A stretch of 32,000 bases of DNA, from positions 360,001 to 392,000 of the forward strand of contig NZ_OZ060386.1 in the NCBI RefSeq assembly GCF_964059055.1. Direction: 5' to 3'. This stretch comes from Buchnera aphidicola (Neophyllaphis podocarpi) (GTDB taxonomy: Bacteria > Pseudomonadota > Gammaproteobacteria > Enterobacterales > Enterobacteriaceae). The position numbers and the translations under genes are program-made. Each line of letters opens with the position of its first letter. Positions within the stretch are counted from its first letter, which is position 1. Under the pieces are notes generated by a model, which was not told where the DNA came from, made no database searches, and worked only from the letters and a program-made list of their open reading frames with translations. This document shows positions 14,665 through 32,000 of this stretch, in pieces.

Positions 14665-15093
14665 TTATATGATAAGATTTCTTGGTTGTTGAGCAGTATG
14701 ATTATGATAATTACCAGGAAATACTTTTAATTTTTTCAGCATTAATTTACCTAAAGAGTTTCTAGGTAACATACCTTTAACAGCATTAAATATAATTCTT
14801 TCTGGAAATTTACATAACATTTCTTTAAATTTTAATTTTTTAATTCCACCAATGAATCCTGTATGTCTATAATATATTTTATTATTTAATTTATTACCAG
14901 TAACTAAAATTTTCTTTGAATTTAAAACAATAATAAAATCTCCTATATCAATATGAGGAGAATATTCTACTTTATGTTTTCCGCATAATATATGAGCAAT
15001 TTTAGTAGATAACCTACCTAAAACTTTATTAGTAGCATCAACGTAGTACCAATTTCTTTTAATGTTTAAAGGTTTAATCAAAAAACTTTTCAT
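14665..15093 (-). CDS. rplM: 50S ribosomal protein L13
   Basis: The ORF-track frame is 14665..15135. I moved the start to the ATG at 15093 because [30 protein letters not shown] aligns with E. coli [30 protein letters not shown] and gives 142 aa, the E. coli length. Confidence 0.94.
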
Positions 15094-15544
15094 AAAAATC
15101 CTTAAATTAACTAGAAAAACTAATATCATATTCAAAAAAAATCAATGACTATCTAAATATATGTCATATCTTGATTTATATAAAAAATGTTATTAATATA
15201 ATATACATTATTTCAGAATAAAAATATAACAAGTTTAATTAGTAATTTAAGAAATTTAAAATTTTAATATATAAAATATGTTAAAAACAAAATAAGAAAA
15301 TAGTGTTTAAAATGTAATTTTAATTATATAAAAATCAAATATTCAATAAAAATAATAAAGATTTACCAATTATTATTTAAATAAAAATATGAAAAAATTA
15401 GCATATATAAAAATAAAATAATACATAAAAACATAAAAGATCAAACATTTTAAAAATGTTTATAAAAATATTAACAAAAAATTCATAAATAATATTAATA
15501 ATTCATGATAAATTAATAGTATTATATGTTAATAGGTAGTCATT

Positions 15545-16714
15545 ATGATTTCCGATAATTCTTTGATATTCTTAAGAAAAAAAATTAATACAATTGATGA
15601 AGAAATACTATTACTTCTTCATAAAAGAAAAAAAATAGCAATTGAAATAGCAAAAATTAAAATAGATAGAAATAAACCAATAAGAGATATAAAAAGAGAA
15701 AAAGAACTAATAAATAAATTAATAAAAATAGGTGATAAAAAAGATCTTGAATCAAATTATATTTATAAGATATTTAAGATCATAATCAAAAACTCGGTAA
15801 ATATTCAAAATAATTTACTTGAAAAATATAATAATAAAAATAAAATTTATGAGCCTATATTAGGATTTTTAGGACCAAAAGGATCTTATTCAAACTTAGC
15901 AACAACAGAATATGCAAGTAAAAATTTTAATAAGTTTTCAACAAAAGGATTAAAAAACTTTCAAGAAGTTATTAATAATCTTTGCGATAATAAAATAAAT
16001 TATGCTGTTTTACCTTTAGAAAATAATAATTCAGGTACTATAAATGAAGTATATGATCTAATTGAAAAAAACGATAATTTATATATAGTAGGAGAAATTT
16101 ATATTTTAATTGATCATTGTTTATTAACTACAAAAAATGTAAAAAATATTAATAACATAAAAAAAATATATAGTCATCCTCAACCAGTTCAACAATGTAG
16201 TAAATTTATTAATCAAATTAAAAATTGTAATATTCAATATACATCAAGTACATCGTCTGCAATGCAAATAATTTCTAATACAAATTTAAATGACATTGCG
16301 GCTATAGGAAGTAAATTAGGAAGTAATTTTTATAAATTAAAAATCTTAAAAGATAATATTTCTAACAAAAAAAATAATATTACTCATTTTATAATACTAT
16401 CTAATGAATATAAAAAAAATTTAGAATTAAAAAAATCTAAAACTAGTTTTATCATAGAAGTAAAAAATAATATTACAGATTTAATAGAAATATTATTGAT
16501 AATAAAAGAAAATGATCTTAAGGTCACTAAAATAGAATCAAGACCTGCTAGCGGATCTTTATGGAATAAAACATTCTATATAGATATTCAGTCTCATTGT
16601 GATTCACAAAACATGCAAAAAGTAATTAAAAAAATTGATATTTTTACAAATAGAATTAGAATTCTAGGATGTTATCCCATATGTAATTCTTTCGATAAAA
16701 TATTAAAAATATAA
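15545..16714 (+). CDS. pheA: bifunctional chorismate mutase / prephenate dehydratase (P-protein)
   Basis: The 389-aa ORF has the CM domain LIFLRKKINTIDEEILLLLHKR..., PDT motifs GFLGPKGSYS and YSHPQPVQQCSKF, and an ACT domain with ESRP. It is collinear with E. coli PheA (386 aa). Confidence 0.93.
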   Translation: MISDNSLIFLRKKINTIDEEILLLLHKRKKIAIEIAKIKIDRNKPIRDIKREKELINKLIKIGDKKDLESNYIYKIFKIIIKNSVNIQNNLLEKYNNKNKIYEPILGFLGPKGSYSNLATTEYASKNFNKFSTKGLKNFQEVINNLCDNKINYAVLPLENNNSGTINEVYDLIEKNDNLYIVGEIYILIDHCLLTTKNVKNINNIKKIYSHPQPVQQCSKFINQIKNCNIQYTSSTSSAMQIISNTNLNDIAAIGSKLGSNFYKLKILKDNISNKKNNITHFIILSNEYKKNLELKKSKTSFIIEVKNNITDLIEILLIIKENDLKVTKIESRPASGSLWNKTFYIDIQSHCDSQNMQKVIKKIDIFTNRIRILGCYPICNSFDKILKI

Positions 16715-16837
16715 ACAAAAATATTTTATAAAATAAATATGAAATTAATTTCTTAATATAATTGTACAAATCAATTTAATATTAAAATAATTTCGTTAAT
16801 GTTATTATATAAAAATAATTTATTATGAGTAATTAAA

Positions 16838-18190
16838 ATGTTCGGTAATTTAACAAAACAACTAAAAAAAACAATACAAAAAATTAGTAATAGAGGAAGA
16901 TTAACAGAAAAACATATAAAAAATACAATAAGAGAAGTTAGAATTGCATTATTAGAAGCAGATGTATCATTATTAGTTATTAAAAAATTCATAGATGCAA
17001 TTCAAAAAAAAGTAATAGGAATAAAAATAAACAAAAGTTTAACTCCCGGACAAGAATTTATTAAAGTTGTTATGAGAGAGTTAATAAAAATAATGGAAGA
17101 TGATAAACAAAAACTAAATTTATCAGTACAACCACCGGCTGTAATATTATTTCTGGGAATACAAGGAGTAGGTAAAACTACTAGTGTAGTTAAATTAGGA
17201 AATATATTAAAAAATAAAAATAAAAAAGTAATAATAGTATCAACAGATATCTATCGCCCTGCCGCTATAACACAAATAGAAATATTATCAAAAAAAATAA
17301 ATATTGATTGTTTTAAATCAGATATAAATGAATCTCCTGATAAAATAGCAATTAAAGCACTAGAATATGCAAAAATAAAATTTTATGATGTTTTATTAGT
17401 TGATACTGCAGGACGTATGCATATAGATAAAAAAATGATGAATGAAATAAAAAATATTTATAATGCTATAAATCCTGTTGAAACATTATTCGTTATTGAT
17501 GCAATGACAGGACAAGATAGTATAAATATTGCAAATAGTTTCAATAAAAAAATTAATATAACAGGAATTATATTAACTAAAACAGATGGTGATGCAAGAG
17601 GAGGAGCAGCTCTATCTGTAAAATATATAACTAAGAAACCAATAAAATTTATTAGTAATGGAGAAAAAATACATTCTATAGAAAAATTTAATCCAAAAAT
17701 AATAGCAAAACGTATATTAGGAATGGATGATACAATAAATATAATAGAAGAAATAGAAAATAAAATAAACAAAAAAGAAATTGAAAAAATTACTAATAAA
17801 TTAAAACAAGGAGAAAATTTTGATTTAAATGATTTTTTATTACAAATAAAACAAATAAAAAAAATGGGAGGAATTGTAAATTTAATAGAAAAATTTAAAT
17901 CTAATAACAAAATTATAAATAATATAAAATCAAATACAAGCAAAAAAGAACTTAATAAAATTGAATCCATAATTAATTCTATGACTATAAAAGAAAGAAA
18001 ACAGCATAATATTATTAAAGGATCCAGAAAACGTAGAATATCTCTAGGATCAGGTACAACTATACAAGATGTTAATAATTTACTTAAACAATTTACTAAA
18101 GTAAAAAATATTATGAAAAAAATTAAAAACAAAGGATTATCTAAAATAATACATGATTTTAAAAATATGATACCAAAAAACATCTTTTAA
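16838..18190 (+). CDS. ffh: signal recognition particle protein Ffh
   Basis: MFGNLTKQLKKTIQKISNRGRLTEKHIKNTIREVRIALLEADVSL matches E. coli MFDNLTDRLSRTLRNISGRGRLTEDNVKDTLREVRMALLEADVAL. The G domain has GIQGVGKTT, DTAGR and TKTDGDARGG, and a Lys-rich M domain follows. Confidence 0.96.
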   Translation: MFGNLTKQLKKTIQKISNRGRLTEKHIKNTIREVRIALLEADVSLLVIKKFIDAIQKKVIGIKINKSLTPGQEFIKVVMRELIKIMEDDKQKLNLSVQPPAVILFLGIQGVGKTTSVVKLGNILKNKNKKVIIVSTDIYRPAAITQIEILSKKINIDCFKSDINESPDKIAIKALEYAKIKFYDVLLVDTAGRMHIDKKMMNEIKNIYNAINPVETLFVIDAMTGQDSINIANSFNKKINITGIILTKTDGDARGGAALSVKYITKKPIKFISNGEKIHSIEKFNPKIIAKRILGMDDTINIIEEIENKINKKEIEKITNKLKQGENFDLNDFLLQIKQIKKMGGIVNLIEKFKSNNKIINNIKSNTSKKELNKIESIINSMTIKERKQHNIIKGSRKRRISLGSGTTIQDVNNLLKQFTKVKNIMKKIKNKGLSKIIHDFKNMIPKNIF

Positions 18191-18231
18191 AAAATACTAT
18201 TTTTATATTAAATAAATAAGGAAAAATCAGC

Positions 18232-18474
18232 ATGGTAAAAATTCGTTTAGCTAGACATGGTTCAAATAAAAGACCATTTTATAAAATAATAGTTGCAGAT
18301 AATAGAAGGGCTAGAAATGGACGTTTTATAGAAAAAATTGGTTTTTTTAACCCTTTGCAAAAAGATAAAAATAAAAAAGTTTCAATGAAAATAAAAAGAA
18401 TAGCATTCTGGATTAAAAATGGAGCTATATTGTCAGAAAGAGTTAAAAATATATGTAAAACATACAATAAATAA
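18232..18474 (+). CDS. rpsP: 30S ribosomal protein S16
   Basis: The S16 N-terminus MVKIRLARHGSNKRPFYKIIVADNRRARNGRFIEKIGFFNP is present, and AAGGAAA lies upstream. Confidence 0.96.
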   Translation: MVKIRLARHGSNKRPFYKIIVADNRRARNGRFIEKIGFFNPLQKDKNKKVSMKIKRIAFWIKNGAILSERVKNICKTYNK

Positions 18475-18493
18475 AAATTTTTAAAGAATATAA

Positions 18494-19027
18494 ATGCTAA
18501 AAAAACAAAATAAAAAACAAAAATCAAAAATTATTATAGGAAAAATTGGTTCTCCTTATGGTATTCTAGGTTGGATTTCAATATTTTCATTTACACAGAA
18601 AAAAAAAAATATATTTGCATATAATTTTTGGAAGATAAAAAAAGAGAAAAAATATTTTGATATTACAGTAATTAAATGGAAAAGAAAAAAAAATAAATTT
18701 TATGTAAAAACTAAAGAAATAAAAGATAGAACTCATGCATCACAGTTTACAAATTGTAATATATTGATTGATGAAATAAATTTACCTATATTAAAAAATA
18801 ATGAATATTATTGGAAAGATATAATAAATTGCGAAGTTTATAATTTAAATAATTATAAAATAGGATATGTTATTAGCTTAATAGAAAATGGGTGCTATGA
18901 TATTTTAGTAATAAAAACAAATCTAAAAAAAAATAAAAAAATGATGTTTATTCCTTTTATAGAAAAAAAAATCATTAAATACGTTAACATAAATAAAAAA
19001 ATCATAAAAATAGAACTACCAAATTGA
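18494..19027 (+). CDS. rimM: 16S rRNA processing protein RimM
   Basis: The 177-aa ORF contains IIIGKIGSPYGILGW and NEYYWKDIINCEV, matching E. coli IVLGKMGSSYGIRGW and GDYYWKDLMGCQV. It has the expected position in the rpsP-rimM-trmD-rplS operon. Confidence 0.9.
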   Translation: MLKKQNKKQKSKIIIGKIGSPYGILGWISIFSFTQKKKNIFAYNFWKIKKEKKYFDITVIKWKRKKNKFYVKTKEIKDRTHASQFTNCNILIDEINLPILKNNEYYWKDIINCEVYNLNNYKIGYVISLIENGCYDILVIKTNLKKNKKMMFIPFIEKKIIKYVNINKKIIKIELPN

Positions 19028-19830
19028 ATAATAACAAGACAAAATTAAACATTAAAAAATTAAAATTAAATTGGATAGGTATTATAACTATATTTAAAGA
19101 AATGTTTAAATCTATCACAGATTATGGTATTACAAGCAGAGCTATAAAAAACAAAATTATTAATTTAGAATACTGGAATCCAAGAGAATTCTCTTGCAAT
19201 AAACACAAAAGGATAGATGAAAGACCATATGGTGGAGGACCTGGAATGGTAATGCAAGTCAAACCTTTGGTAAAAGCAATACATGCAGCAAAAATAAAAG
19301 CAGGAAAAAATGTAAAAGTATTTTTTTTATCTCCTCAAGGAAAAAAAATAGATCACAAAAATATTGTAGATTTAGCTACTAACTTAAAAATAATTTTAGT
19401 ATGCGGAAGATATGAAGGGATAGATGAAAGAATAATCAAAAAAGAAATTGATGAGGAAATATCTATAGGAGATTACATTACTAGCGGAGGAGAGCTTCCA
19501 GCTATGGTAATAATTGATGCAATTATCAGAATTTTACCTGGAGCATTAAAAAAGCGAAAATCTTTTAAAAATGATTCTTTTTATAACGGAATTTTAGACT
19601 ATCCTAATTACACTAGACCTAAAATAGCCTATAATATGGAAGTACCTAAAGTATTATTATCTGGTAATCACAAAAAAATTGACGAGTGGAGATTTAAAAA
19701 ATCTTTAGAAAAAACTTGGATAAAAAGACCTGATTTAATTAAAAAAATAAATTTAAATAGTAATGAAAAAAAAATTTTAAATGAGTATAAAAAACAATTT
19801 TATTTAAAAAAAATTAAATACAAAAAATAA
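19024..19830 (+). CDS. trmD: tRNA (guanine37-N1)-methyltransferase TrmD
   Basis: [27 protein letters not shown]...[11 protein letters not shown]...[14 protein letters not shown]...[14 protein letters not shown] is collinear with E. coli TrmD. There is no ATG upstream of the conserved WIGII. The TTG at 19024 overlaps the rimM stop as TTGA, and the exact start is uncertain. Confidence 0.9.
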
Positions 19831-19844
19831 AATTAGGATATATA

Positions 19845-20192
19845 ATGAATCAAATAATAAAAAATATAGAAGAAAAACAGTTAAAAATCAATATACCAAA
19901 TTTTAGATCAGGAGATATTATAGAAGTTAATGTATGGGTGGTAGAAGGTAATAAAAAGAGAATTCAAATGTTTGAAGGTTTAGTAATAGGAATTAAAAAT
20001 AGAAAATTAAATTCATCTTTTACTATAAGAAAAATATCAAACGGAGAAGGAGTTGAAAGGGTATTTCAAACACATTCTCCTATAATTGAAAGTATTAATA
20101 TAAAAAGATTAGGATATGTAAGAAAATCAAAACTATATTATCTTAGAAAAAAAGTAGGTAAATCTGCAAAAATCAAAGAAAGATTAACATAA
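19845..20192 (+). CDS. rplS: 50S ribosomal protein L19
   Basis: The ORF is 115 aa, the E. coli length. It contains [29 protein letters not shown]...[16 protein letters not shown]. Confidence 0.96.
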
Positions 20193-20199
20193 ATAAAAA

Positions 20200-20227
20200 G
20201 CAGTCAAGAATAAAAAATTCTGACTGC
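20200..20227. terminator. bidirectional hairpin terminator between convergent rplS and tldD
   Basis: GCAGTCA(A)GAAT (20200-20211) pairs with ATTC-TGACTGC (20217-20227): 11 bp, one bulged A, 5-nt loop. The minus-strand reading is followed directly by UUUUUAUUUAU. The plus-strand reading has a T7 run 9 nt downstream. Confidence 0.65.
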
Positions 20228-20288
20228 AATATTTAATTTTTTTAAAATATTAAATATTTAATTAATTAAAATTATAAATTTTTATAAT

Positions 20289-21743
20289 TTAATTAGTTCC
20301 TCCAATAGTTAAATTATTTAATTTAATAGTTGGTTGGCCTACTCCTACAGGAATACTTTGACCATCTTTTATGCATATACCTATACCACTATCTAAGGAT
20401 AAATCATTCCCTACCATAGAAATTTGCTGCATTACTTCAATACCAGATCCAATTAATGTTGCATTTTTTATAGGATTTGTAATTTTTCCATTTTTTATTA
20501 AATAAGCTTCTGAAGTAGAAAATACAAATTGACCTGAAGTAATATCTACTTGACCTCCGCTGAAATTTGTAGCATACAAACCAAAACCAACACTTTCGAT
20601 AATTTCATCTTTATTTGATAAACCAGGCAACATATAAGTATTAGTCATACGAGGCATGGGCAAATGAGCATAAGACTCACGACGGCAATTACCTGTAGAT
20701 TTAGTATCCATAAATTTAGCGTTTAATTTGTCTTGCATATAACATTTTAATATTCCATTTTCAATTAAAATATTTTTTTGACTAGGAGTTCCTTCATCAT
20801 CAATTGTTAAAGAACCTCTCCTACCAAATATAGTTCCATCATCTATAATAGTACATAAACTTGAAGCAACTTTTTTGCCTATTTTATTACTAAATAAAGA
20901 AGTACCATGTCTATTAAAATCTCCTTCTAATCCATGACCAACAGCTTCATGTAATAATACTCCAGGCCATCCAGAACCTAATACAACAGCATAAGAACCT
21001 GAAGGAGCAGGTATTGCATATAAATTTAATAAAGCAGAACGAACAGCTTCTAGAGTCCAATATATTATATTAGTTTCACCTGAATTATTTTTTTCCATAA
21101 AAAATTTATAACCATCACGTCTACCTCCACCCATAAATCCTTGTTCTCTTTTACCATTCTCTTCAACAAAAACACTAATATAAACATGTATTAAAGGTCT
21201 AATATCATAAGATAAATTACCATCTGTGGATGAAACAAAAATATTTTCATAATTACTCAAAATACGAGCATTAACATCTACAACTCTTTTATCAGCTTTT
21301 CTAGCAACATTATTTATAATATTTAATATATCTATTTTTTCTTCAGAAGTATTACCTCTTAAAGGATTTATAAAATTGTATTTATTACTAGTGATAACAT
21401 TATTAAAATTAATAATTTTATTATTTACATAATTTTTATCATAAATACTATCACATGCCATTTTTGAAATTTTAAATAATGAATCTACATTTATATCATT
21501 AGAATAAGAAAAACCAGTTTTGGAACCATTAATAGCTCTTATACCTATTCCATGATCTTCGTGGTAAGAACCTGTTTTAATAATGCCATTCTCTAGCAAC
21601 CAAGATTCCTGTAATATTGATTGAATATAGATATCTCCATATTCTATTTTAGAATCAGACATTTTATTTAAAACATCATAAATATTTTCTTTATGGATAT
21701 TATTAGAAGTTAATAAATTCTGTTTTACTGAATTAATAGTCAT
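20289..21743 (-). CDS. tldD: metalloprotease TldD
   Basis: The 484-aa ORF (E. coli 481) has the zinc motif [15 protein letters not shown] and a C-terminal GxGQP... region, collinear with E. coli TldD. Confidence 0.92.
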
Positions 21744-21914
21744 TATTATAAACCTATAAAAATAAAATAATTGGATTATATAAAATATTATTTAATAATT
21801 TATTTAAGATTTTAAAAAATAATAATTATCAAAATAGTTTAAAAAATTATTATTTAATATTTATATATTCCAAAAATAATAATTAAAAAAACAAAAATTC
21901 TTTAATATTAATTA

Positions 21915-21942
21915 TTGATATATTAATACAATATAGTATTAT
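21915..21942 (+). promoter_or_regulatory. candidate sigma70 promoter upstream of aroQ-accBC
   Basis: TTGATA (21915-21920), a 16-nt spacer, then TATTAT (21937-21942), about 75 nt upstream of the aroQ ATG. Such hexamers are common in this A+T-rich background, so the evidence is weak. Confidence 0.25.
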
Positions 21943-22015
21943 TTGAAAAATAGTATTTAATATTTATTTTAGTTATTATTTTATCATAAACAGTGTATAG
22001 GATTTTTAAAAACAG

Positions 22016-22459
22016 ATGAAAAAAAAAAATAATGTTTTAATATTAAATGGTCCAAATTTAAATTTGTTAGGTATAAGAGAAAAAAATATTTATGGTAATT
22101 TTACAATTGAAGAATTAATAAAAATTACTACAAAAGAAGCAAAAAAACTAAATATAAAATTATTTCATATACAATCTAATGCAGAGCATATTTTAATAGA
22201 TGAAATACATAAATGTATGAATTATATAAATTTCATAATTATAAATCCGGCTGGTTTATCACATACTAGTATATCTCTAAGAGATGCATTATTATCAGTG
22301 AATATAAAATTTATAGAAGTACATATATCTAATATATATAAAAGAGAAGAATTTAGGAAAAATTCATATATTTCTGATATAGCAGATGGAATAATATGCG
22401 GTTTTGGAATTAATAGTTATTTATTAGCTTTAAAAGCATCTGCAGAATTGTTAAAATAG
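22016..22459 (+). CDS. aroQ: 3-dehydroquinate dehydratase, type II
   Basis: The 147-aa ORF contains [15 protein letters not shown]...[15 protein letters not shown]...[17 protein letters not shown]...[14 protein letters not shown], matching E. coli AroQ motifs. It lies upstream of accB-accC, as in E. coli. Confidence 0.94.
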
Positions 22460-22483
22460 AATAATAGTATTTTAGGTTTCAAT

Positions 22484-22924
22484 ATGGATATAAAAAAAAT
22501 AAGTAAGCTAATTAAATTAATAGAACAATCATGTATTAGTGAAATTAAAATTTCTAATGGATCAGAAGTAGTAAAAATTAAAAAAAGCATTTATATGCAT
22601 AAAAACACAAAAAATTCAGAAAAAATACAAATATATAAAAAAAATAATTTAAATAAAAGAATAAGAAATAACAAAAAAAACAAGGAAAAAAAAACAATAA
22701 TAAAATCACCAATGGTAGGTACTTTTTATTATAATTCACATAAAGATTCCAAACCATTTATATCAATAAATCAAAGAATTAATAAAGGAGATATAATTTA
22801 CATTATTGAAGCTATGAAAGTAGTAAATCATGTAAGATCAGAAAAATCAGGCATAATTAAAAAAATTTTAGTAAAAAATGGACAATCAGTAGAATTTGAT
22901 CAACCATTAATTATTATAGAATAA
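22484..22924 (+). CDS. accB: acetyl-CoA carboxylase biotin carboxyl carrier protein
   Basis: [24 protein letters not shown] matches E. coli [32 protein letters not shown] is present, and the biotinyl-lysine motif is IEAMKVVN (E. coli VEAMKMMN). The Ala/Pro linker is replaced by a Lys/Asn-rich one. Confidence 0.94.
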
Positions 22925-22938
22925 AAGGGAGAATTAAT

Positions 22939-24300
22939 CTGAAAAAAATTCTAATTGCTAATAGAGGGGAAATAGCACTACGTATCTTAAGAAGTTGCAA
23001 AGAAATGGGCATAAAAACAGTTGCAGTACATTCTACAATAGATAAAAATTTAAAACATGTGTTATTAGCAGATGAAACAGTATGTATAGGACCTCCTGAA
23101 ATATCAAAAAGTTATTTAAATATTCCATCAATTATTTCAGCAGCTGAGATTACCGGATCTACAGCTATTCATCCAGGTTATGGCTTTCTAGCAGAAAATG
23201 CAAATTTTGCAGAACAAGTAGAAAAATCAGGTTTTATATTTATAGGTCCAAAAGCAGATACAATGAAAAAAATGGGAGACAAAATATCTGCTATAAAGAT
23301 AATGAAAAGTTACAAAATTCCATGTATACCTGGTTCAAATAAAAAAATAAGTATAAACATGAAAAAAAATTATAAATATGCTGAAGAAATTGGTTATCCA
23401 ATTATATTAAAAGCTTCAAAAGGAGGAGGAGGTAGAGGAATAAGAATTGTAAAAAATAAATACAAATTAAAAGAGAATATAATTTTAGTAAAAAAAGAAT
23501 CTAATTTATCATTTAATGACAAAACAATATTTATGGAAAAATATTTAAATGATGCACGTCATATTGAAATACAAATATTAGCAGATGGAAAAGGTAATGC
23601 AGTATACATATCTAATAGAGACTGTTCAATCCAATTAAATAATCGTAAAATTTTAGAAGAAGCTCCTGCTATAGGTATTAATAAAAATATCATTGATAAT
23701 ATAAGTAAAATATGCATAAATGTTTGTATAAAAATAAAATATAAAGGAGTAGGAACTTTTGAATTTTTATACAAAAACAAAAAATTTTTCTTTATAGAAA
23801 TGAATACTAGAATTCAAGTTGAACATGCAATTACAGAAATGGTTACAGGAATAGATTTAATTAAAGAGCAAATAAATATATCATTTGGAAAAATACTATC
23901 AATTAAACAAAATCAAATAAAAACAAAAGGTCACTCTATAGAATGTAGAATAAATGCAGAAAATATTAAAACATTACTTCCTAGTACTGGTAAAATAGAA
24001 GAATTACATATTCCTAGTGGTTTCGGAATTCGATGGGAATCACATATTTACAACGGATATCCAATAACTCATTACTATGACTCAATGATAGCTAAAGTTA
24101 TATCATTAGGTGAAAATAGATATATTGCAATCAAAAAAATGCAAAATGCTTTAACAGAAACTATTATTAGCGGTATAGAAACAAATATAAAATTACAAAA
24201 AAAAATATTAAATAACAAAAAATTTATTAAAGGTAAAATTAATTCTAAATTTATAAAAGACATAGTAGAAAATATAAAAAATCAAAACATGCACTTCTAA
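22939..24300 (+). CDS. accC: acetyl-CoA carboxylase biotin carboxylase subunit (non-canonical start, probably CTG)
   Basis: The ORF track starts at the ATG at 23005 ([10 protein letters not shown]...). The same frame upstream reads (CTG)[21 protein letters not shown], matching E. coli residues 2-23, [29 protein letters not shown] lies at 22926-22932, 6 nt before the CTG at 22939. The remainder is collinear with E. coli AccC ([18 protein letters not shown]). Confidence 0.9.
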
Positions 24301-24331
24301 GATTTACTAAAATTATTTGAAGTGCAGTTTT
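24290..24331. terminator. candidate bidirectional terminator between convergent accC and fis
   Basis: TGCACTTC (24290-24297, overlapping the accC stop) pairs with GAAGTGCA (24319-24326). It is followed by GTTTTAT on the + strand and TGTTTTGATTTTTT on the - strand. The 21-nt loop is long for a terminator. Confidence 0.4.
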
Positions 24332-24358
24332 ATAATATTTAGTCAAAATATATTTATT

Positions 24359-24658
24359 TTAATTCATTCCATATTTCTTTAATTTTTTACGTAATGTACC
24401 TCTATTAATACCCATTAAAGAAGCAGCTTTAGTTTGATTACCTCTAGTATGTTGCATAATAACATCTAATAAAGGTTGTTCTACTTCATTCAAAAAATAA
24501 TTATAAATATTCTTTAAATTAGAATGATTTAAATTAGAAAAAAAATTTTTTAAAGCTATACTAATAACATTACGTAAAGGTTTTTCCACAATTTTATTGT
24601 TTATATTTATAGTAGGAACTAAAACTACAAAATTAGAATTTATATTATTTAAAAACAT
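24359..24658 (-). CDS. fis: DNA-binding protein Fis
   Basis: In this 99-aa ORF the C-terminal half, LNEVEQPLLDVIMQHTRGNQTKAASLMGINRGTLRKKLKKYGMN, is nearly identical to E. coli Fis. Confidence 0.96.
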   Translation of the reverse strand: MFLNNINSNFVVLVPTININNKIVEKPLRNVISIALKNFFSNLNHSNLKNIYNYFLNEVEQPLLDVIMQHTRGNQTKAASLMGINRGTLRKKLKKYGMN

Positions 24659-24817
24659 GATTTCATATTCTCTTTATATTTAGTAAAGATATCTTAATTA
24701 TACAACATTTATTATTTAAAGAATTAAAACTAGAAATTATTTATAATAAATAAAAAATAAAAAATAAAACAAGAAAATAATTATCTTTATACTAACTAAA
24801 AAATTAAAAAATCAAAT

Positions 24818-25767
24818 TTAAACATGTTTAATTAATTTAATTAGTGAAATCATATCATAAGGCAAAGAAATTCTCCATTTCATTTTCTTTTTAGTAATAG
24901 GATGATATAATTCTAACATAAACGCATGTAATGCCTGGCGATGAAATTCATTAATTTTTTTATTAAAAAAATTTTTTTTATATATCATTTTATGGTGGTT
25001 ATTAATATATAATTTATCCCCTACAATAGGATGATTAATATGTGATAAGTGAACACGAATCTGATGAGTTCTACCTGTTCCTAAAGAAATAAATAAAAAA
25101 GAAAAATTTTTAAAATAACTAATGACTTTACAGTTAGTAATTGACTCTTTACCTTTATTATTAACACTCATTTTTGTTCTATAAATTTTATGTCTAGCTA
25201 TAGGATAATTAATTTTTATATTAGAGCTAACATTACCATATACTATAGACTTATAATACCTTTTAACTTTATGTAATTTAAAATAATTTATTAAAATATT
25301 ATATGAAATAATATTTTTTGCAATAACCATTAAACCTGAAGTATTTTTATCTAAACGATGTACTATACCAACTCTAGGAATATTTATCATTTTATAATCA
25401 CGATAAAGTAATGCATTTAAAACAGTTCCATTTAAATTACCAGCTCCTGGATGAACAACTAAATTACATGGTTTATTAATAACTATTATATCTTTATCTT
25501 CATATATTATATCTAAATTTATATTTTGAGGTATTAACTCATTTAGATTACTCTGAACAATTTTAACATAAATTTTGTCTCCATTAAAAATTTTTTTTTA
25601 GGAACGTTTACAATAATATTATTTACATAAACTTGATTTTTTAAAATGACTTTTTTAAAAAAAGAACGAGAATAATTTTTAAACAAATAAACTAAAACAT
25701 AGTCTAATCTTTTTCCAAATAATTCAGAATTAAAAACAAATGAACTTAAATGATATTCTTTAAACAT
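24818..25767 (-). pseudogene. rluD: 23S rRNA pseudouridine synthase RluD, interrupted by a frameshift in an A9 tract (T9 on + strand, 25591-25599); possibly rescued by slippage or a sequencing artefact
   Basis: The N-terminal ORF 25543..25767 carries the S4 domain (GKRLDYVLVYLFKNYSRSFFKKVILKNQVYVNN). After the A9 run, the other frame, translated by hand, reads [62 protein letters not shown]...RVGIVHRLDKNTSG...GRTHQIRVH...FHRQALHAFMLELYHPIT. This is collinear with E. coli RluD, and the catalytic Asp motif is intact. A10 would give a single protein of about 316 aa. Confidence 0.88.
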
Positions 25768-25934
25768 AAAATAATCCTTAAAATAGTTATATAAATATAT
25801 AATTAATTAAAATATATTAGAAAATAAATATAAATTAAAATTATAACAAAATATTCAAGATTACATTACAATAGTTTAATATATAAAGATCTATAATAAT
25901 TTAAGTAAATATTTTATATCACAAAAAAATATAT

Positions 25935-28547
25935 ATGATAAAAACCACAAATGAAATACGTAAAATGTTTCTGGAATTTTTTTATAATAAAGATCATAAA
26001 ATTTTAGAAAGCAGTTCACTAATACCTAAAAATGATAACACGTTATTATTTACAAATGCAGGTATGAATCAATTTAAAAATATTTTTTTAGGAAGTGAAA
26101 AAGCAAAATATCCCAGAATTGTAACTACGCAAAAATGTTTAAGAACAGGAGGAAAGCACAATGATATTGAAAATGTAGGAAATAGTAACAAACATCATAC
26201 ATTTTTTGAAATGCTAGGAAATTTTAGTTTTAATGATTATTTTAAAAAAGAAGCAATTAATTATGCTTGGGAATTACTAACAAGTAAAAAATGGTTTAAT
26301 TTACCAAAAGAAAATTTTATAATTACGATATACAAAACAGACAAAGAAACTTATAAAATATGGTTAAATGACATAGGAATAAATAAAAATAATTTAATAA
26401 AAATAGGAGACAACAAAAAAAATAAATACTGCTCAGATAATTTTTGGCAAATGGGAAAAGACGGACCTTGCGGACCATGTACAGAAATTTATTATAATAA
26501 TAATACAAAAAATACATGTTTTAAAAAAAATAAAGAAGATTTTATCGAAGTTTGGAATATAGTATTTATGCAATTTAATAAAATTTCTCATGATAATATT
26601 AAACCTTTAAGAAAATCATATATTGATACAGGAATGGGATTAGAAAGAATTTCTGCAGTATTACAAAAAGTAAATTCTAATTTTAAAATAGATATTTTTA
26701 TAGAATTAATTAATCATATAATTAGTTTAGCTGACAAAAAAATAATAAATAAAAAATCTATATATATTATAGCAGATCATATAAGATCTATATCTTTTAT
26801 GATAATAGAAGATATAACTCCATCAAATGAAGGTAGAGGATATACTCTTAGAAAACTTATTAGAAGATCAGTATTACATGGAAGTAAAATTGGTATTAAA
26901 ATAATTTTTTTACATAAATTAATTCCTGTATTAATTAAAACAATGGGATTCTTTGCAAATGAAATTAAAAATAAAAAAAATAAAATAAAAAAAATAATAA
27001 AAGAAGAAGAAAAAAAATTTTTAATTCTATTAAAAAAAGGAAAAAAATTATTAAATCAACATCTAAATGATAAACAAAAAATCATTTCAGGGAAAAAAAT
27101 ATTTTATTTGTATGATACATTTGGAATACCTATAGAATTAATGTCAGATATATGCAATACAAAACAAATCAAACTAGATATTAATGGATTTAGAAAATGT
27201 ATGGAAAAACAAAAAACATTAGCTAGAAATAATAATAATTTTGATAAAAAATATAATACCTCCATACTACCAATAAATTCAATATCTAAATTTAAAGGAT
27301 TTGAAAAACACCAAATAACATCCAAAATTATTTTTATAATTGTCAATAACAATTTATTAAAACAAATAAATAAAAATGATGAAACAATTATTATATTACA
27401 AGAAACATGTTTTTTTCCTGAATCTAGTGGTCAAAAAGGAGACACAGGATATATAAAAACAAGTACAGGATTATTTAAAGTAAAAAATACTATTAAATAT
27501 GGATTATCAATAGCTCATATTGGAGAATTAAAACAAGGAAGTATAAATATAAATGATTCTGCAGATATCATATTAAATCAGGAAAGAAGAAATAAAATAG
27601 AAATAAATCATACCGCAACACATTTATTAAATGCTGCTTTAAAAAAAATTTTGGAATCTGAAATAGAACAAAAAGGATCTTGGATAAATGACAAATATTT
27701 AAGATTAGATTTTACATACAAAAAAAATATAAAAATACATCTAATACATCAAATAGAAAATTTAGTTAATTATCACATTAGAAAAAATCATGAAATTAAA
27801 ACTTTTAATATGAAATTTGAAGATGCTTGCAAAAAAAATATATCTAAATTAGAAAACAAAACATATAAATCAATCGTAAGAGTTTTATCTATAAATAAAT
27901 TTTCAAATGAATTATGCGGTGGAACACATACAAAAAATACTGGTAATATTGGATTATTTAAAATAATATCATGTGTTAGTAATTCAGCAAATACTAGAAG
28001 AATAGAAGCAGTTACTGGACAAATAGCTTTAGATAAAATACATGAACAAAATATAGAAATAAAACATATTAATTCAATTCTTGGCACAAATAATAATCAA
28101 ATAAAATCAAAAATTCAAAATTTAATTTATGATAAAATAAATTTAGAAAAGCAAGTTGCTTCATATAAAATTAAAGAAATTGAAATAACATACAAAAAAA
28201 TAATTAAAAATTTTATAAAAATAAAAGATATTAAATTTATTTTTTATATTTTAGATAATATAGAAAATAAACTAATATTTAAATTAATAGATAAAATCAA
28301 AAATAAAATAAAACCTGTAATTATTGTAATAATTAATAAAAAAAATGAAAAAAATTTTATTATAATATCAATCAGTAATTGCATTACAAAAAAAATACAA
28401 GCAAAAGATATAATAAAAATTATACTTAAAAAAACAAATGGAAAAGGAGGAGGAGGAAAAAATATAGCTATAGGAGGAAATATTAATTTAAATTATATAG
28501 AAAAAGCAATAAATAATTTAAAATTATGGATAAATCAAAATATATAA
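25935..28547 (+). CDS. alaS: alanine--tRNA ligase
   Basis: The ORF is 870 aa (E. coli 876). The N-terminus has EIRKMFLEFFYNKDHKILESSSLIPKNDNTLLFTNAGMNQFK. The editing-domain motifs HTATHLL and CGGTH are present, and the C-terminus has GGGGKNIAIGG. Confidence 0.96.
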   Translation: MIKTTNEIRKMFLEFFYNKDHKILESSSLIPKNDNTLLFTNAGMNQFKNIFLGSEKAKYPRIVTTQKCLRTGGKHNDIENVGNSNKHHTFFEMLGNFSFNDYFKKEAINYAWELLTSKKWFNLPKENFIITIYKTDKETYKIWLNDIGINKNNLIKIGDNKKNKYCSDNFWQMGKDGPCGPCTEIYYNNNTKNTCFKKNKEDFIEVWNIVFMQFNKISHDNIKPLRKSYIDTGMGLERISAVLQKVNSNFKIDIFIELINHIISLADKKIINKKSIYIIADHIRSISFMIIEDITPSNEGRGYTLRKLIRRSVLHGSKIGIKIIFLHKLIPVLIKTMGFFANEIKNKKNKIKKIIKEEEKKFLILLKKGKKLLNQHLNDKQKIISGKKIFYLYDTFGIPIELMSDICNTKQIKLDINGFRKCMEKQKTLARNNNNFDKKYNTSILPINSISKFKGFEKHQITSKIIFIIVNNNLLKQINKNDETIIILQETCFFPESSGQKGDTGYIKTSTGLFKVKNTIKYGLSIAHIGELKQGSININDSADIILNQERRNKIEINHTATHLLNAALKKILESEIEQKGSWINDKYLRLDFTYKKNIKIHLIHQIENLVNYHIRKNHEIKTFNMKFEDACKKNISKLENKTYKSIVRVLSINKFSNELCGGTHTKNTGNIGLFKIISCVSNSANTRRIEAVTGQIALDKIHEQNIEIKHINSILGTNNNQIKSKIQNLIYDKINLEKQVASYKIKEIEITYKKIIKNFIKIKDIKFIFYILDNIENKLIFKLIDKIKNKIKPVIIVIINKKNEKNFIIISISNCITKKIQAKDIIKIILKKTNGKGGGGKNIAIGGNINLNYIEKAINNLKLWINQNI

Positions 28548-28548
28548 A

Positions 28549-28576
28549 TTGACTACTTTATATATTAATATATGTT
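28549..28576 (+). promoter_or_regulatory. candidate sigma70 promoter for csrA
   Basis: TTGACT (28549-28554) lies immediately after the alaS stop, followed by a 16-nt spacer and TATGTT (28571-28576). The -10 element is weak. The same AATTGACT octamer recurs at 28830-28837. Confidence 0.3.
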
Positions 28577-28630
28577 TTATAAGCATTAAATAAGAATGAA
28601 TCTTTGTATTTTTTTAAGGAGTAAAATAGA

Positions 28631-28810
28631 ATGCTTATTCTAACTCGTAGAGTTGGTGAGACTCTTATGATAGGTGATGAAGTTACAGTAACTGTATTAG
28701 GAGTAAAAGGAAATCAAGTTCGCATAGGAGTAAATGCGCCCAAAAAAATTTCAGTTCACAGGGAAGAAATATATAAAAGAATTAAATCTGAAAAAATAAA
28801 TAATAAATAA
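28631..28810 (+). CDS. csrA: carbon storage regulator CsrA
   Basis: This gene is not in the ORF track (59 aa). My hand translation is [59 protein letters not shown], nearly identical to E. coli CsrA over the first ~50 aa. AAGGAG lies 10 nt upstream. It sits after alaS and before tRNA-Ser, as in E. coli. Confidence 0.95.
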
Positions 28811-28831
28811 ATATATATTTTAAAAAAAAAA

Positions 28832-28860
28832 TTGACTTATTTTGTAAAAAAAGTAATATA
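28832..28860 (+). promoter_or_regulatory. candidate sigma70 promoter for the tRNA-Ser/tRNA-Arg pair
   Basis: TTGACT (28832-28837) is followed by TAATAT (28854-28859) after a 16-nt spacer, or AATATA after a 17-nt spacer. It lies about 30 nt upstream of the tRNA-Ser 5' end. Confidence 0.35.
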
Positions 28861-28890
28861 AAAATTATAAAAATTTATTTTAATATAAAA

Positions 28891-28980
28891 GGTGAGATGG
28901 CCGAGAGGATTAAGGCGCTCTCCTGCTAAGAGAGTATGTAACTAATAAATGCATCGAGGGTTCGAATCCCTCTCTCACCA
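28891..28980 (+). tRNA. serV: tRNA-Ser (anticodon GCU), class II
   Basis: The acceptor is GGTGAGA/TCTCACC. The anticodon stem is CTCTC/GAGAG with loop CTGCTAA (GCT). A long variable arm is present, and the T arm is GAGGG-TTCGAAT-CCCTC. Its position after csrA matches E. coli serV. The discriminator A is followed by TAA, so no CCA is encoded. Confidence 0.9.
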
Positions 28981-29019
28981 TAAATTAAATAAAAATTTAA
29001 AATATAAAATATATACTTA

Positions 29020-29093
<74 letters not shown>

Positions 29094-29135
29094 ATATAAA
29101 AAAATTAAGTATTTAATTATAAATAAAATATAATA

Positions 29136-29161
29136 ATTATGTTTACATAATCATTTTTTTT
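29136..29161 (+). terminator. weak candidate terminator after the tRNA pair
   Basis: ATTATGT-TT-ACATAAT (29136-29151, A+T-rich, very small loop) is followed by CA and a T8 run (29154-29161). Confidence 0.3.
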
Positions 29162-29222
29162 AAAAAATTATATATATTAATATAATTTGAAAACTAAGAT
29201 TATAAGGCAAAAAACATACAAA

Positions 29223-30749
29223 ATGTTATCTAATATTTCAAAAGAGCTAAACTGGTTACAAAAAAATAATAAAATATTAAAAGGAATTAAAAAAGGTATA
29301 GAAAGAGAAACATTAAGAATTGAATATAATGGAAATATATCACCTAAAAATCACCCTAAAAAAATGGGATCTTCATTAACTAATAAATGGATTACTACAG
29401 ATTTTTCTGAAAGTTTAATGGAATTTATTACTCCTGCATATGATAATATAAATAAAACAATATTTTTCCTGCAAGATATTCATAATTATGTGTCTAATAA
29501 TTTGATTAAAGAATATATGTGGCCTTTTAGTATGCCTGGATTTATTAAAAATCAAAATAAAATTGAAATTGCAAACTATGGAACATCTAATATAGCTAAA
29601 ATAAAAAAAATATATAGAGAAGGTTTAAAAAATAGATATGGTGTTTATATGAATATCATGTCAGGAATACATTATAATTTTTCTTTTCCAAAAAAATTTT
29701 GGAAATATTGGTTTGAGTATAAAGGATTAAAAAAAAACCAACATAACATATCTAATAGTTATATGAAATTAATTAGAAATTATTATAGATTTGGTTGGAT
29801 AATACCATATTTATTTGGAGCATCTCCTGCTATATGCTCTTCATTTCTAAAAAAAAATAAAACTAATATAAAATTCATAAAAAATAAAAAAGAAGTTTTG
29901 TACCTTCCTTGGGCTACATCTTTAAGATTAAGTGAAATTGGTTATAACAATAAATTGCAAAAAGAAATAAAAATTAATTTTAATTCTATTAATTATTATA
30001 TAAAACAACTAAAATTAGCTCTAAATACACCTATAAAAAAATTCAAAAAATTTGATGTTTGTAAAAATAAAATAAAAAAACAACTAAATTGTAATATATT
30101 ACAAATGGAAAATGAACTTTATACACAAATTAGACCTAAAGTAAATATTAAACCTAATCAAATACATTATAAAGAATTACTGAATAAAGGTATAGAATAT
30201 ATAGAAATAAGATCATTAGATGTAAATCCTTTTTCTTCTATAGGAATAAATAAAATACAGATGCATTTTTTAGAAATATTTATCATATGGTGTATGATAG
30301 GAAGTTCCAAAAAAATGAATCAAACAGAACTAAATATTTCGAATGAAAATTGGAATCGTATTATATTAGAAGGTAGAAAACCTAAACAAATTATAAAATT
30401 TAAAAAAAATAAAACAATTTATTTAAAAAATGTTATGAATCACATAATAAAAGATCTATATGAAATAGCAGAAATATTAGATGACAAATCAAAAAATAAA
30501 TCTTATACAAAATCTTGCAATAATGTATATGAATTAATTAAATATCCAGAATTAACTTACTCTAATATTACTCTCAAAAAAAATCTAAAATATGGAATGA
30601 AAGAAAGCGGTTTAATGTTAGCAGAAAAATATTTTAATAAATTTAAAAATAAATCAATGAAAATTTTAAAATATGAAGATTTTATAAAAGAAATAAAATA
30701 TTCAAATAAACTAAAAAAAGAAATAGAAAATCAAGAAAAAATCAATTAA
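29223..30749 (+). CDS. gshA: glutamate--cysteine ligase
   Basis: The ORF-track frame begins at the TTG at 29187. I prefer the ATG at 29223 because MLSNISKELNWLQKNNKILKGIKKGIERETLRI aligns with E. coli [33 protein letters not shown]. Other matches include KWITTDFSESLMEFITP, YREGLKNRYG, RNYYRFGWIIPYLFGASPAICSSF and IEIRSLDVNPF. Confidence 0.95.
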   Translation: MLSNISKELNWLQKNNKILKGIKKGIERETLRIEYNGNISPKNHPKKMGSSLTNKWITTDFSESLMEFITPAYDNINKTIFFLQDIHNYVSNNLIKEYMWPFSMPGFIKNQNKIEIANYGTSNIAKIKKIYREGLKNRYGVYMNIMSGIHYNFSFPKKFWKYWFEYKGLKKNQHNISNSYMKLIRNYYRFGWIIPYLFGASPAICSSFLKKNKTNIKFIKNKKEVLYLPWATSLRLSEIGYNNKLQKEIKINFNSINYYIKQLKLALNTPIKKFKKFDVCKNKIKKQLNCNILQMENELYTQIRPKVNIKPNQIHYKELLNKGIEYIEIRSLDVNPFSSIGINKIQMHFLEIFIIWCMIGSSKKMNQTELNISNENWNRIILEGRKPKQIIKFKKNKTIYLKNVMNHIIKDLYEIAEILDDKSKNKSYTKSCNNVYELIKYPELTYSNITLKKNLKYGMKESGLMLAEKYFNKFKNKSMKILKYEDFIKEIKYSNKLKKEIENQEKIN

Positions 30750-31049
30750 TTAAAAAAACAAATTTATTATAAATAGAAATTTATTTAAATTAATTGCATA
30801 AAAATATTTTTATACAATAAAATTATATCTAAATTTAAATTAAACTACATAAATCAATATACAAATATATTGATTTAATACATTAAAAAATAAAATTTCA
30901 TACAAATTAACTAAGAAAATAAAATATATTTATACAATTAAACTTTAATATAAAAATATTATTTAGTTGTATACTATACATAATCAGTGAATTTTATTAA
31001 TAACTATATTATTATATTAAAATAATTTATTAATAAAATTGATTAAATA

Positions 31050-31754
31050 ATGTATATAAAACTAGTTATATTAATTATTATAATGTCTATATCATCTGTT
31101 TCAGCATTTGAATTAAAAAAAAATAAAAAAAATTTTTATCAAGCAAAAATTTTAGCAAGTAAAATAGAAAAAAAAGCTCCTGGAACTTTTTATTGTGGTT
31201 GTAAAATTATATGGAATAATAAAAAAGGAATACCAGATTTAAATTCATGTGGATATAAAATACGAAAAAATAAAGTGAGAGCAAATAGAATTGAATGGGA
31301 ACATGTAGTTCCAGCATCACAATTTGGAAATAAAAGAATTTGCTGGAAAATAGGAGGACGTAGTCAATGCGATAAAGATTCAGGATATCAAAAAATAGAA
31401 ACAGATTTGCATAATTTAAGACCTGCTATAGGAGAAATTAATGGAGATAGGTCTAATTTTTTATTCGAATTAATAAGAAATAAAAAATTGGTAAATCAGT
31501 ATGGAAAATGTAGCGTGAAAATTGATTTCAAAAATAAGATTATAGAACCTCCAGAAATAGCTAGAGGAGCTATAGCTAGAACTTATTTTTACATGAGAGA
31601 TAAATATAAAATTAAATTATCAGATAAACAATCGTATATTATGAGCATATGGAATAAAAAATATAAAGTTAGTTTATGGGAGTGTAAAAGAAATAATTTA
31701 ATTTCAAAATATCAAGGAAATTATAATTTTTATATAACAAATCAATGCAAATAA
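31050..31754 (+). CDS. endA: periplasmic endonuclease I
   Basis: The ORF is 234 aa (E. coli 235). It has an N-terminal signal-like segment ending VSA/FE, then APGTFYCGCKIIWNNKKG...CGY..R.N..RANRIEWEHVVPASQFG...HNLRPAIGEINGDRSNF...ARGAIARTYFYMRD, collinear with E. coli EndA. Confidence 0.94.
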   Translation: MYIKLVILIIIMSISSVSAFELKKNKKNFYQAKILASKIEKKAPGTFYCGCKIIWNNKKGIPDLNSCGYKIRKNKVRANRIEWEHVVPASQFGNKRICWKIGGRSQCDKDSGYQKIETDLHNLRPAIGEINGDRSNFLFELIRNKKLVNQYGKCSVKIDFKNKIIEPPEIARGAIARTYFYMRDKYKIKLSDKQSYIMSIWNKKYKVSLWECKRNNLISKYQGNYNFYITNQCK

Positions 31755-31766
31755 TTTTTTATTAAA

Positions 31767-32000
31767 ATGAAAATTTATAGAATATATTTAAAAAATAATA
31801 ACATAAAGATTAATAAAAAAATCGTAATAAATAATATAAAACAAGTACATTATTTAAATAAAGTAGTAAGAATCAAACATAACGACTTAATAGAAATATT
31901 TAATAATAGTAAATATGTGTATCATGCAAAAATTATAAATTTAAAAAAAAACAATATACATATGAAAATAATAAAAATAATAGAAACAAAAAAAGAATCT
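31767..32000 (+). CDS. rsmE: 16S rRNA (uracil1498-N3)-methyltransferase RsmE (5' part only; runs off window)
   Basis: My hand translation from the ATG at 31767 is MKIYRIYLKNNNIKINKKIVINNIKQVHYLNKVVRIKHNDLIEIFNNSKYVYHAKIINLKKNNIHMKIIKIIETKKES..., open to the window end. It resembles the E. coli RsmE N-terminus MRIPRIY...HI.RVLRM..G..L.LFDGSN.VF.AEI. Its position after endA matches E. coli endA-rsmE. Sequence similarity is modest. Confidence 0.7.
   Translation, partial: MKIYRIYLKNNNIKINKKIVINNIKQVHYLNKVVRIKHNDLIEIFNNSKYVYHAKIINLKKNNIHMKIIKIIETKKES

Follow-up and report, generated by a model that had tools for sequence, protein, structure and literature searches.

The window analysed here is a stretch of 32,000 nucleotides (nt) of the genome of Buchnera aphidicola (Neophyllaphis podocarpi) (contig NZ_OZ060386.1, positions 360,001 to 392,000), with a composition of about 21% GC, and our subject is rluD, a minus-strand gene that is broken into two reading frames at a run of nine A's (A9). 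The N-terminal open reading frame (ORF; 25767..25543, minus strand) encodes 74 amino acids (aa), with the C-terminal end ...NVPKKKFLMETKFMLKLFRVI*. It reads ...AAC GTT CCT AAA AAA AAA TTT TTA ATG GAG... through the run and then meets a TAA at 25545-25543. Read in the downstream frame, the same minus-strand context is TCC TAA AAA AAA ATT TTT, with exactly nine A's in the run. This second frame is shut by the TAA at 25600-25598, is open thereafter to the TAA at 24820-24818, and can be entered only at the run because the first of these stops closes it there. A mechanical ORF list displays it as a 190-aa ORF preceded by an apparent 152-nt 'gap', because its first canonical start is at 25390; no ATG, GTG or TTG occurs in the frame between 25597 and 25390.

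Addition of one A to the run produces a 316-aa ORF with zero internal stops. Removal of one A does not restore the frame, and removal of two A's gives 315 aa. The 32-kb window holds 18 A/T runs of length 9, three of 10 and two of 11, and the A9 run taken alone is unremarkable in this setting; the joining of its two flanking frames into a full-length RluD is beyond chance. An earlier sequence-only reading of this DNA had placed a T9 on the plus strand at 25591-25599, a stop at 25543 and a second frame open to 24818, and all of these coordinates are correct; its hand translation of the downstream frame also matches the computed translation. The features of the locus are collected in Table 1.

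Table 1. Features of the rluD locus, in window coordinates
Feature	Position	Strand	Description
Shine-Dalgarno-like AAGGA	25775..25779	-	7 nt 5' of the rluD ATG; motif read from the sequence, function putative
rluD 5' segment, frame 0	25591..25767	-	codons 1-59, from the ATG (25767-25765) to the three AAA Lys codons; S4 domain
A9 homopolymer (T9 on +)	25591..25599	-	1-nt deficit; proposed slippage site, with an A AAA AAA heptamer in frame 0
TAA closing the downstream frame	25598..25600	-	formed by the T ahead of the run and the run's first two A's
Out-of-frame tail of the unshifted product	25543..25590	-	FLMETKFMLKLFRVI plus TAA (25545-25543), overlapping the true coding frame
rluD 3' segment, +1 A frame	24818..25590	-	ATT TTT AAT GGA...; PseudoU_synth_2; ends in TAA (24820-24818)
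GAT codon of the catalytic Asp	25349..25351	-	residue 140 of the repaired protein, motif GIVHRLDK
First canonical start (ATG) in the downstream frame	25388..25390	-	artefactual ORF start that would drop 67 conserved residues

The protein encoded by the repaired frame has the architecture expected of RluD. Pfam S4 (PF01479), an RNA-binding domain, matches residues 20-64 with 30.2 bits (cut-off 22.8), and Pfam PseudoU_synth_2 (PF00849) matches residues 93-243 with 108 bits and is covered over its whole profile (1-152). The best NCBIfam model is the RluD equivalog NF008385 (348.4 bits, cut-off 351), with the RluC equivalog next at 116 bits and RluA at 86.5; the RluA subfamily model TIGR00005 is passed with 281 bits against a cut-off of 192.7. 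A search of solved structures aligned residues 8-313 to E. coli RluD (274 bits, E 1e-80). This alignment is gap-free across the junction created by the added A, where PKKKIFNGD faces PKEKVLGGE (nvPKkKifnGdki / DKPKEKVLGGEQV), and GIVHRLDK, which holds the HRLD catalytic Asp, is aligned to GIVHRLDK of the E. coli enzyme. We take this Asp to be the catalytic residue, Asp139 in E. coli. The earlier expectation of a synthase of about 316 aa with an S4 domain and an intact catalytic Asp motif, resembling E. coli RluD, thus stands in each of its parts: 316 aa, both Pfam domains, HRLD kept, and a 274-bit alignment without a gap at the junction.

The gene order in the window is alaS - rluD - fis - accC/accB - aroQ - pmbA. 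Two other Buchnera genomes (L085, L086) have alaS - bamD - rluD - (fis) - aroQ - pmbA, with an intact RluD of 311-313 aa, and by gene order the window's rluD sits at the orthologous position of Buchnera genomes. From sequence and position together, the gene is rluD, with a predicted activity as 23S rRNA pseudouridine 1911/1915/1917 synthase. In these two other genomes the gene between alaS and rluD is bamD (yfiO, 244-257 aa); in the window only 167 nt (25768-25934) separate the divergent starts of alaS and rluD, and Neophyllaphis Buchnera seems to have lost bamD from this place.

Two conflicting annotations of this locus are public for the window genome, one of 316 aa and one of 74 plus 257 aa. 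The submitter's protein CAL4323939.1, 'Ribosomal large subunit pseudouridine synthase D', has 316 aa and is residue-for-residue identical to the repair with ten A's (A10), so the submitter had already bridged the frameshift. RefSeq PGAP lists instead the 74-aa S4 fragment and a 257-aa 'RluA family pseudouridine synthase', with no full-length call. The 257-aa model begins at an ATT made with the last A of the run (window 25591; 10001 in the N. podocarpi locus L001, described below) and overlaps the 69/74-aa S4 ORF; the nearest database protein is likewise a 257-aa 'RluA family pseudouridine synthase' of Buchnera aphidicola (Neophyllaphis podocarpi). According to the searched text of Manzano-Marin et al. 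2023 (bioRxiv 10.1101/2022.08.28.505559), genes frameshifted in A/T homopolymers were treated in annotation as functional on the model of Tamas et al. 2008, with weight also given to conservation among close relatives, in a dataset that includes Neophyllaphidinae Buchnera. CAL4323939.1 matches this policy as worded there, whether or not the record stems from that study. Our literature search found no paper discussing rluD of Neophyllaphis Buchnera.

Homopolymer length is a classic source of sequencing and assembly error, and the first alternative to be weighed is that the true genome carries A10. Sister genomes were retrieved through a protein cluster and exact-protein look-ups. The orthologous loci came from N. 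podocarpi CP135039 (L001) and N. varicolor CP135042 (L082), and from the Logan read assemblies SRR29340286 (L083) and SRR29340287 (L084). A scan of genome contigs with the repaired protein returned only distant low-GC Firmicutes, Pelagibacter and similar, with Buchnera relatives unranked, probably because the frameshift splits the tblastn match. The string CCT-A9-T5-AATGGAGA is identical in all five assemblies (window, L001, L082, L083 and L084), which represent three genomes, with records of 559180, 559476 and 559524 bp. Over 950 positions, the window's rluD differs from that of N. varicolor at 1 and from that of N. podocarpi at 41. The rluD of L083 equals that of L082 and the rluD of L084 that of L001; to judge by this identity, the Logan contigs and the records CP135042 and CP135039 may go back to shared read sets, a point on the side of an artefact. 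The window genome, however, is a separate submission (ENA-style CAL accession) from the CP1350xx records, which originate from a Sci Data 2024 study.

Runs longer than nine are also resolved in frame elsewhere in the window. Intact ORFs contain an in-frame T10 (3633-3642) and an in-frame A10 (11206-11215), and in-frame A11 runs lie in rimM (18599-18609) and directly after the aroQ ATG (22019-22029), the two A11 runs being of unchanged length in both sister genomes. There is thus no systematic shortening of long runs in the assembly. Moreover, the submitter bridged the frameshift deliberately and left the sequence uncorrected. Since A9 is found in two other genomes and two read assemblies, an assembly artefact is unlikely, and we give it next to no credence. 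On the sequence evidence the A9 deficit is genomic and is common to at least two Neophyllaphis symbiont lineages. By the same logic as is applied to rluD, runs of 10-11 in intact genes are expected to be strong slippage sites that give rise to many out-of-frame transcripts.

The comparison between the window and N. podocarpi points to purifying selection on both sides of the run. Their rluD genes are separated by 41 substitutions, with 0 indels and 0 new stops in 950 nt. The ratio of non-synonymous to synonymous substitution rates (dN/dS), calculated by the Nei-Gojobori method in the A10-repaired frame, is 0.124 for the whole gene (26 synonymous and 15 non-synonymous changes; synonymous excess, P=6e-10). 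By segment it is 0.164 for the S4 part, codons 1-59 (5 and 4; P=0.014), 0.110 for the middle part, codons 60-126 (8 and 4; P=6e-4), and 0.116 for the C-terminal part, codons 127-316 (13 and 7; P=8e-6). Wrong-frame values range from 0.28 to 1.77, those of the middle segment being 0.47 and 1.77, and third codon positions hold 25 of the 41 differences (P=2.6e-4). Fourteen neighbouring intact genes have a pooled dN/dS of 0.148 (range 0.04-0.47) and a dS of 0.146, values from which the dN/dS of rluD is indistinguishable.

Insertions, deletions and stops tell the same story. In a 17-kb three-way alignment, the window and N. podocarpi are separated by 22 indel events, of which 19 fall in 2745 nt of intergenic DNA and none in rluD, where 6.6 would be expected at the intergenic rate (P=0.0014). 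When the same 41 substitutions are placed at random, 72% of placements create a premature stop; rluD has none. With a dN/dS like that of its intact neighbours and no indels, rluD is therefore not decaying. The lesion being common to both lineages, it is most parsimonious to place all of this constrained evolution after the frameshift, and the selection acting to either side of the run suggests that the full-length protein must still be made. The middle segment is particularly informative: its codons are conserved and the frame has no canonical start before 25390, so translation must enter the downstream frame at the run. Taken together, the comparative evidence says that the gene remains functional.

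These results settle the main predictions of the sequence-only reading. The supposed gap of about 150 nt, which arises when the ORF is drawn from 25390, was held to be coding; no earlier canonical start exists, and the dN/dS of codons 60-126 is 0.11. The same value, set against 0.47 and 1.77 in the other frames, bears out the codon-level conservation anticipated for 25391-25590 in the proposed frame. Comparison of the run in sister genomes had been suggested as well, and A9 was found in three separately deposited genomes, one of them from a different submission, as well as in the two Logan assemblies. Stops or indels in sister strains had been named as the sign of decay, and the rluD genes of the sister lineages have none.

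The indel and substitution data weigh most directly on the possibility that rluD is a young pseudogene, inactivated by the A9 lesion, making no full-length protein and not yet visibly eroded. Gene erosion in Buchnera usually starts with an indel in a poly(A) run (PMC3017870, PMC5574713), rluD fragments have been read as gene loss in one Blochmanniella lineage (PMC12779916), and RefSeq PGAP does not call the full-length protein. Yet the identical lesion occurs in lineages that stand at dS = 0.16 from each other, the three segments have dN/dS values of 0.11-0.16 that equal those of intact neighbours, and the absence of indels (0 against 6.6 expected; P=0.0014) and of stops (present in 72% of neutral simulations) is not what decay would leave. 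A variant in which a hypermutable run acquired the lesion twice, recently and once in each lineage, would escape these objections and requires two independent, very recent, identical deletions. We consider a young pseudogene unlikely.

Selection on the S4 segment also bears on whether rluD has become a split gene, with the S4 part (the 74-aa ORF) and the catalytic module made as separate polypeptides and the second initiated at ATT 25591 or ATT 25573. The 257-aa protein of PGAP starts at the former, with the run's last A. The latter is in frame and has a GGAG 5 nt to its 5' side (25573-25586, minus strand) that is kept in N. podocarpi, and the catalytic module of RluD has been crystallised alone (PDB 1prz, 252 aa). 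Against this, ATT 25591 lies inside a translated ORF and lacks a Shine-Dalgarno sequence; neither GGAG nor AGGA occurs in the 20 nt 5' of the run's last A (GTAAACGTTCCTAAAAAAAA). ATT is a very poor initiator in enterobacteria, and ahead of 25390 the catalytic part offers no canonical internal start, only ATT and ATA codons. The GGAG encodes the Gly-Asp of a conserved NGD/GGE motif, and probably reflects these codons rather than a weak internal initiation site. Finally, the S4 part finishes in 15 out-of-frame residues, and its dN/dS of 0.16 is most simply explained by fusion to the enzyme. Two separate polypeptides are therefore quite improbable in our judgement.

How, then, would the full-length protein arise? 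Two other Buchnera lineages with an intact RluD (311 and 313 aa) have CCT GAT AAA AAA ATG or ATA at this place (A7). In the lineage of Neophyllaphis, replacement of GAT (Asp) by AAA (Lys) would have given CCT AAA AAA AAA ATT (A10), and a later loss of one A would have left the present A9; the gap-free pairing of PKKK with PKEK of E. coli fits A10 as the in-frame state. RNA polymerase would realign backwards on the T9 template and add an extra A in a fraction of the mRNAs. The resulting A10 message, CCU AAA AAA AAA AUU UUU AAU GGA, would encode the 316-aa enzyme with S4 and catalytic domains, and the unshifted mRNA would yield the 74-aa S4 fragment. That the lesion is tolerated and that full-length RluD is produced through transcriptional slippage at A9 is the explanation we favour, and we regard it as likely on the grounds of the comparative data and of analogy with related symbionts. 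Slippage itself and the output of full-length protein are what we infer from the observed lesion, its conservation and the selection on its two sides.

Published work on these bacteria is consistent with transcriptional slippage. Bacterial RNA polymerase slips on runs of 9 A's or 9 T's (Atkins et al. 2016, PMC5009743), and the same review, citing Tamas 2008, puts the correction of poly(A) frameshifts at 12-50% of Buchnera and Blochmannia transcripts. Such frameshifts are conserved across species without decay, according to passages of Williams and Wernegreen 2010 (PMC3017870) that cite Tamas 2008 and Wernegreen 2010. Traverse and Ochman 2017 (PMC5574713) found 151 of 157 transcriptional insertions in Buchnera within homopolymeric runs, at a rate that climbs exponentially with run length. 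Most of these insertions were of a single base into A or T runs, and the +1 direction fits what rluD needs.

The same protein would result if the ribosome slipped by -1 on A AAA AAA, which may contribute. As the main route, programmed -1 frameshifting of the dnaX type in place of RNA polymerase slippage has some attraction, since the slippery heptamer A AAA AAA lies in the zero frame within CCU AAA AAA AAA and the shift gives PKKK-IFNG, identical to the product of the A10 mRNA. The elements that stimulate such programmed shifts were, however, not found: the 91 nt 3' of the run have a minimum free energy of -7.1 kcal/mol and fold more weakly than shuffled sequences, whose mean is -9.5 (z=+0.95), and the 20 nt upstream (GTAAACGTTCCT) contain no Shine-Dalgarno-like stimulator. 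In addition, the mechanism documented by experiment in Buchnera is transcriptional (PMC3017870, PMC5009743). With neither a downstream structure nor an upstream Shine-Dalgarno-like element, we rejected a dnaX-like programmed signal and hold this route to be very improbable; an unprogrammed ribosomal contribution may exist.

Several points count against rescue of rluD by transcriptional slippage. The case for rescue is drawn from selection and from analogy, and sequence alone cannot tell transcriptional from ribosomal slippage. In Buchnera LSR1, Traverse and Ochman (PMC5574713) found no transcription error that restored a frameshifted frame. Our comparison covers only two diverged lineages with few substitutions per segment (9 in S4, 12 in the middle), and parallel recent A10-to-A9 deletions may have occurred in both, such runs being mutational hot spots. 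That the run has stayed uninterrupted gives, in itself, no information on selection: about 90% of coding runs of at least 8 are also unchanged between the two lineages. Lastly, the score of the repaired protein against the NCBIfam RluD equivalog falls 2.6 bits under the curated cut-off, a small shortfall that was to be anticipated in a protein from a 21%-GC endosymbiont.

A second gene in the window carries the same kind of lesion, as the sequence-only reading had noticed. The glmM gene (4611-5953, minus strand) is split at an A9 (T9 on the plus strand, 5268-5276) into overlapping ORFs of 238 and 230 aa, and one added A gives a 447-aa phosphoglucosamine mutase with zero internal stops. The A9 and the split are also present in N. 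varicolor CP135042 and in its Logan assembly, which were reached via a neighbouring gene; a protein search with the repaired GlmM had returned no Neophyllaphis entry among the matches listed. We also entertained the idea that the deficit is selectively kept as an expression device, in which slippage would set a low dose of RluD and GlmM and a free 74-aa S4 polypeptide would be functional, in the manner of the tau and gamma products of dnaX. There is, in our estimate, only a small chance that this is so. Conservation of A9 as a sign of selected slipperiness was dropped as an argument, the roughly 90% of coding runs of at least 8 noted above being equally unchanged.

Some further observations concern the surroundings of rluD. 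A second change in poly(A) length was seen at the 3' end of trmD, where an A8 in the window (19806-19813) is an A7 in N. podocarpi. It alters the C-terminus only: TrmD has 268 aa in the window and in N. varicolor, against 288 aa, overlapping rplS, in N. podocarpi (L001 15720-16586). Intergenic divergence between the window (14848-32000) and L001 is K=0.054 over 2451 aligned nt, well under the flanking-gene dS of about 0.146, which could stem from composition saturation in spacers that are nearly pure A+T, from alignment effects or from spacer constraint. An Rfam scan of the window found three tRNAs and nothing else. A promoter and terminator scan of 24650-25950 gave fewer promoter-like sites than shuffled sequences and zero terminators, a result that is uninformative in 19%-GC DNA.

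The lesion in rluD is real and was correctly read, yet it is ordinary for such genomes: it is of an already known type and its bridged product is already public. The sequence-only reading overlooked two things: the phenomenon is a textbook one in endosymbionts, and the submitter's bridged 316-aa product had already been deposited. The main value of the finding lies in the annotation and interpretation of reduced genomes. RluD is the one rRNA pseudouridine synthase that E. coli needs for normal growth, and the two fragments reported by automatic pipelines could be misread as loss of rluD. With it the known slippage-dependent genes of Buchnera gain a further example, one that is conserved across species; it opens no new question.

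Such a reading as loss has been made for another insect endosymbiont, Blochmanniella BSEQ, where rluD is likewise found in ORF fragments and was interpreted as inactivated or lost (PMC12779916); the Neophyllaphis fragments differ in being under purifying selection and in having a single, conserved poly(A) deficit. A more distant parallel is dnaX, with a -1 frameshift at A AAA AAG in E. coli and also transcriptional slippage on A9 (PMC5009743). As in rluD, a run of A's in lysine codons is slippery in dnaX, and A9 is a documented slippage-prone length. The dnaX slippage on A9 is presumably that of Thermus. The dnaX shift is programmed, with stimulators and two functional products, whereas that proposed for rluD would be corrective, its 74-aa product is not known to have a role, and no stimulators were found.

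Closer to our case is pheA of Buchnera from Periphyllus/Chaitophorinae (Manzano-Marin et al. 2023), to which the same rescue reasoning and the same annotation policy were applied. It is a different gene in a different clade, and rluD is not discussed in the searched text of that study. The nearest likeness is to the cases of Tamas et al. 2008 (PNAS) and Wernegreen et al. 2010 (MBE), as they are described in later papers (PMC3017870, PMC5009743). These share with rluD the single 1-nt indel in an A run of at least 9, the otherwise intact gene, the conservation of the lesion without decay, the AT-rich obligate insect endosymbiont as host, and a correction by +1 A, the direction that slippage favours. 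The genes tested by experiment there, as these later papers summarise them, were cell-wall genes of Buchnera and a histidine gene of Blochmannia; neither rluD nor the Neophyllaphis lineage is among them, and the present case is known from sequence. With its 1-nt indel in a run of at least 9, an otherwise intact reading frame, conservation in relatives and purifying selection on both sides, rluD belongs, by sequence and by analogy, to the known class of poly(A) frameshifts that AT-rich insect endosymbionts tolerate and rescue, and its full-length product is predicted to be expressed as theirs are.

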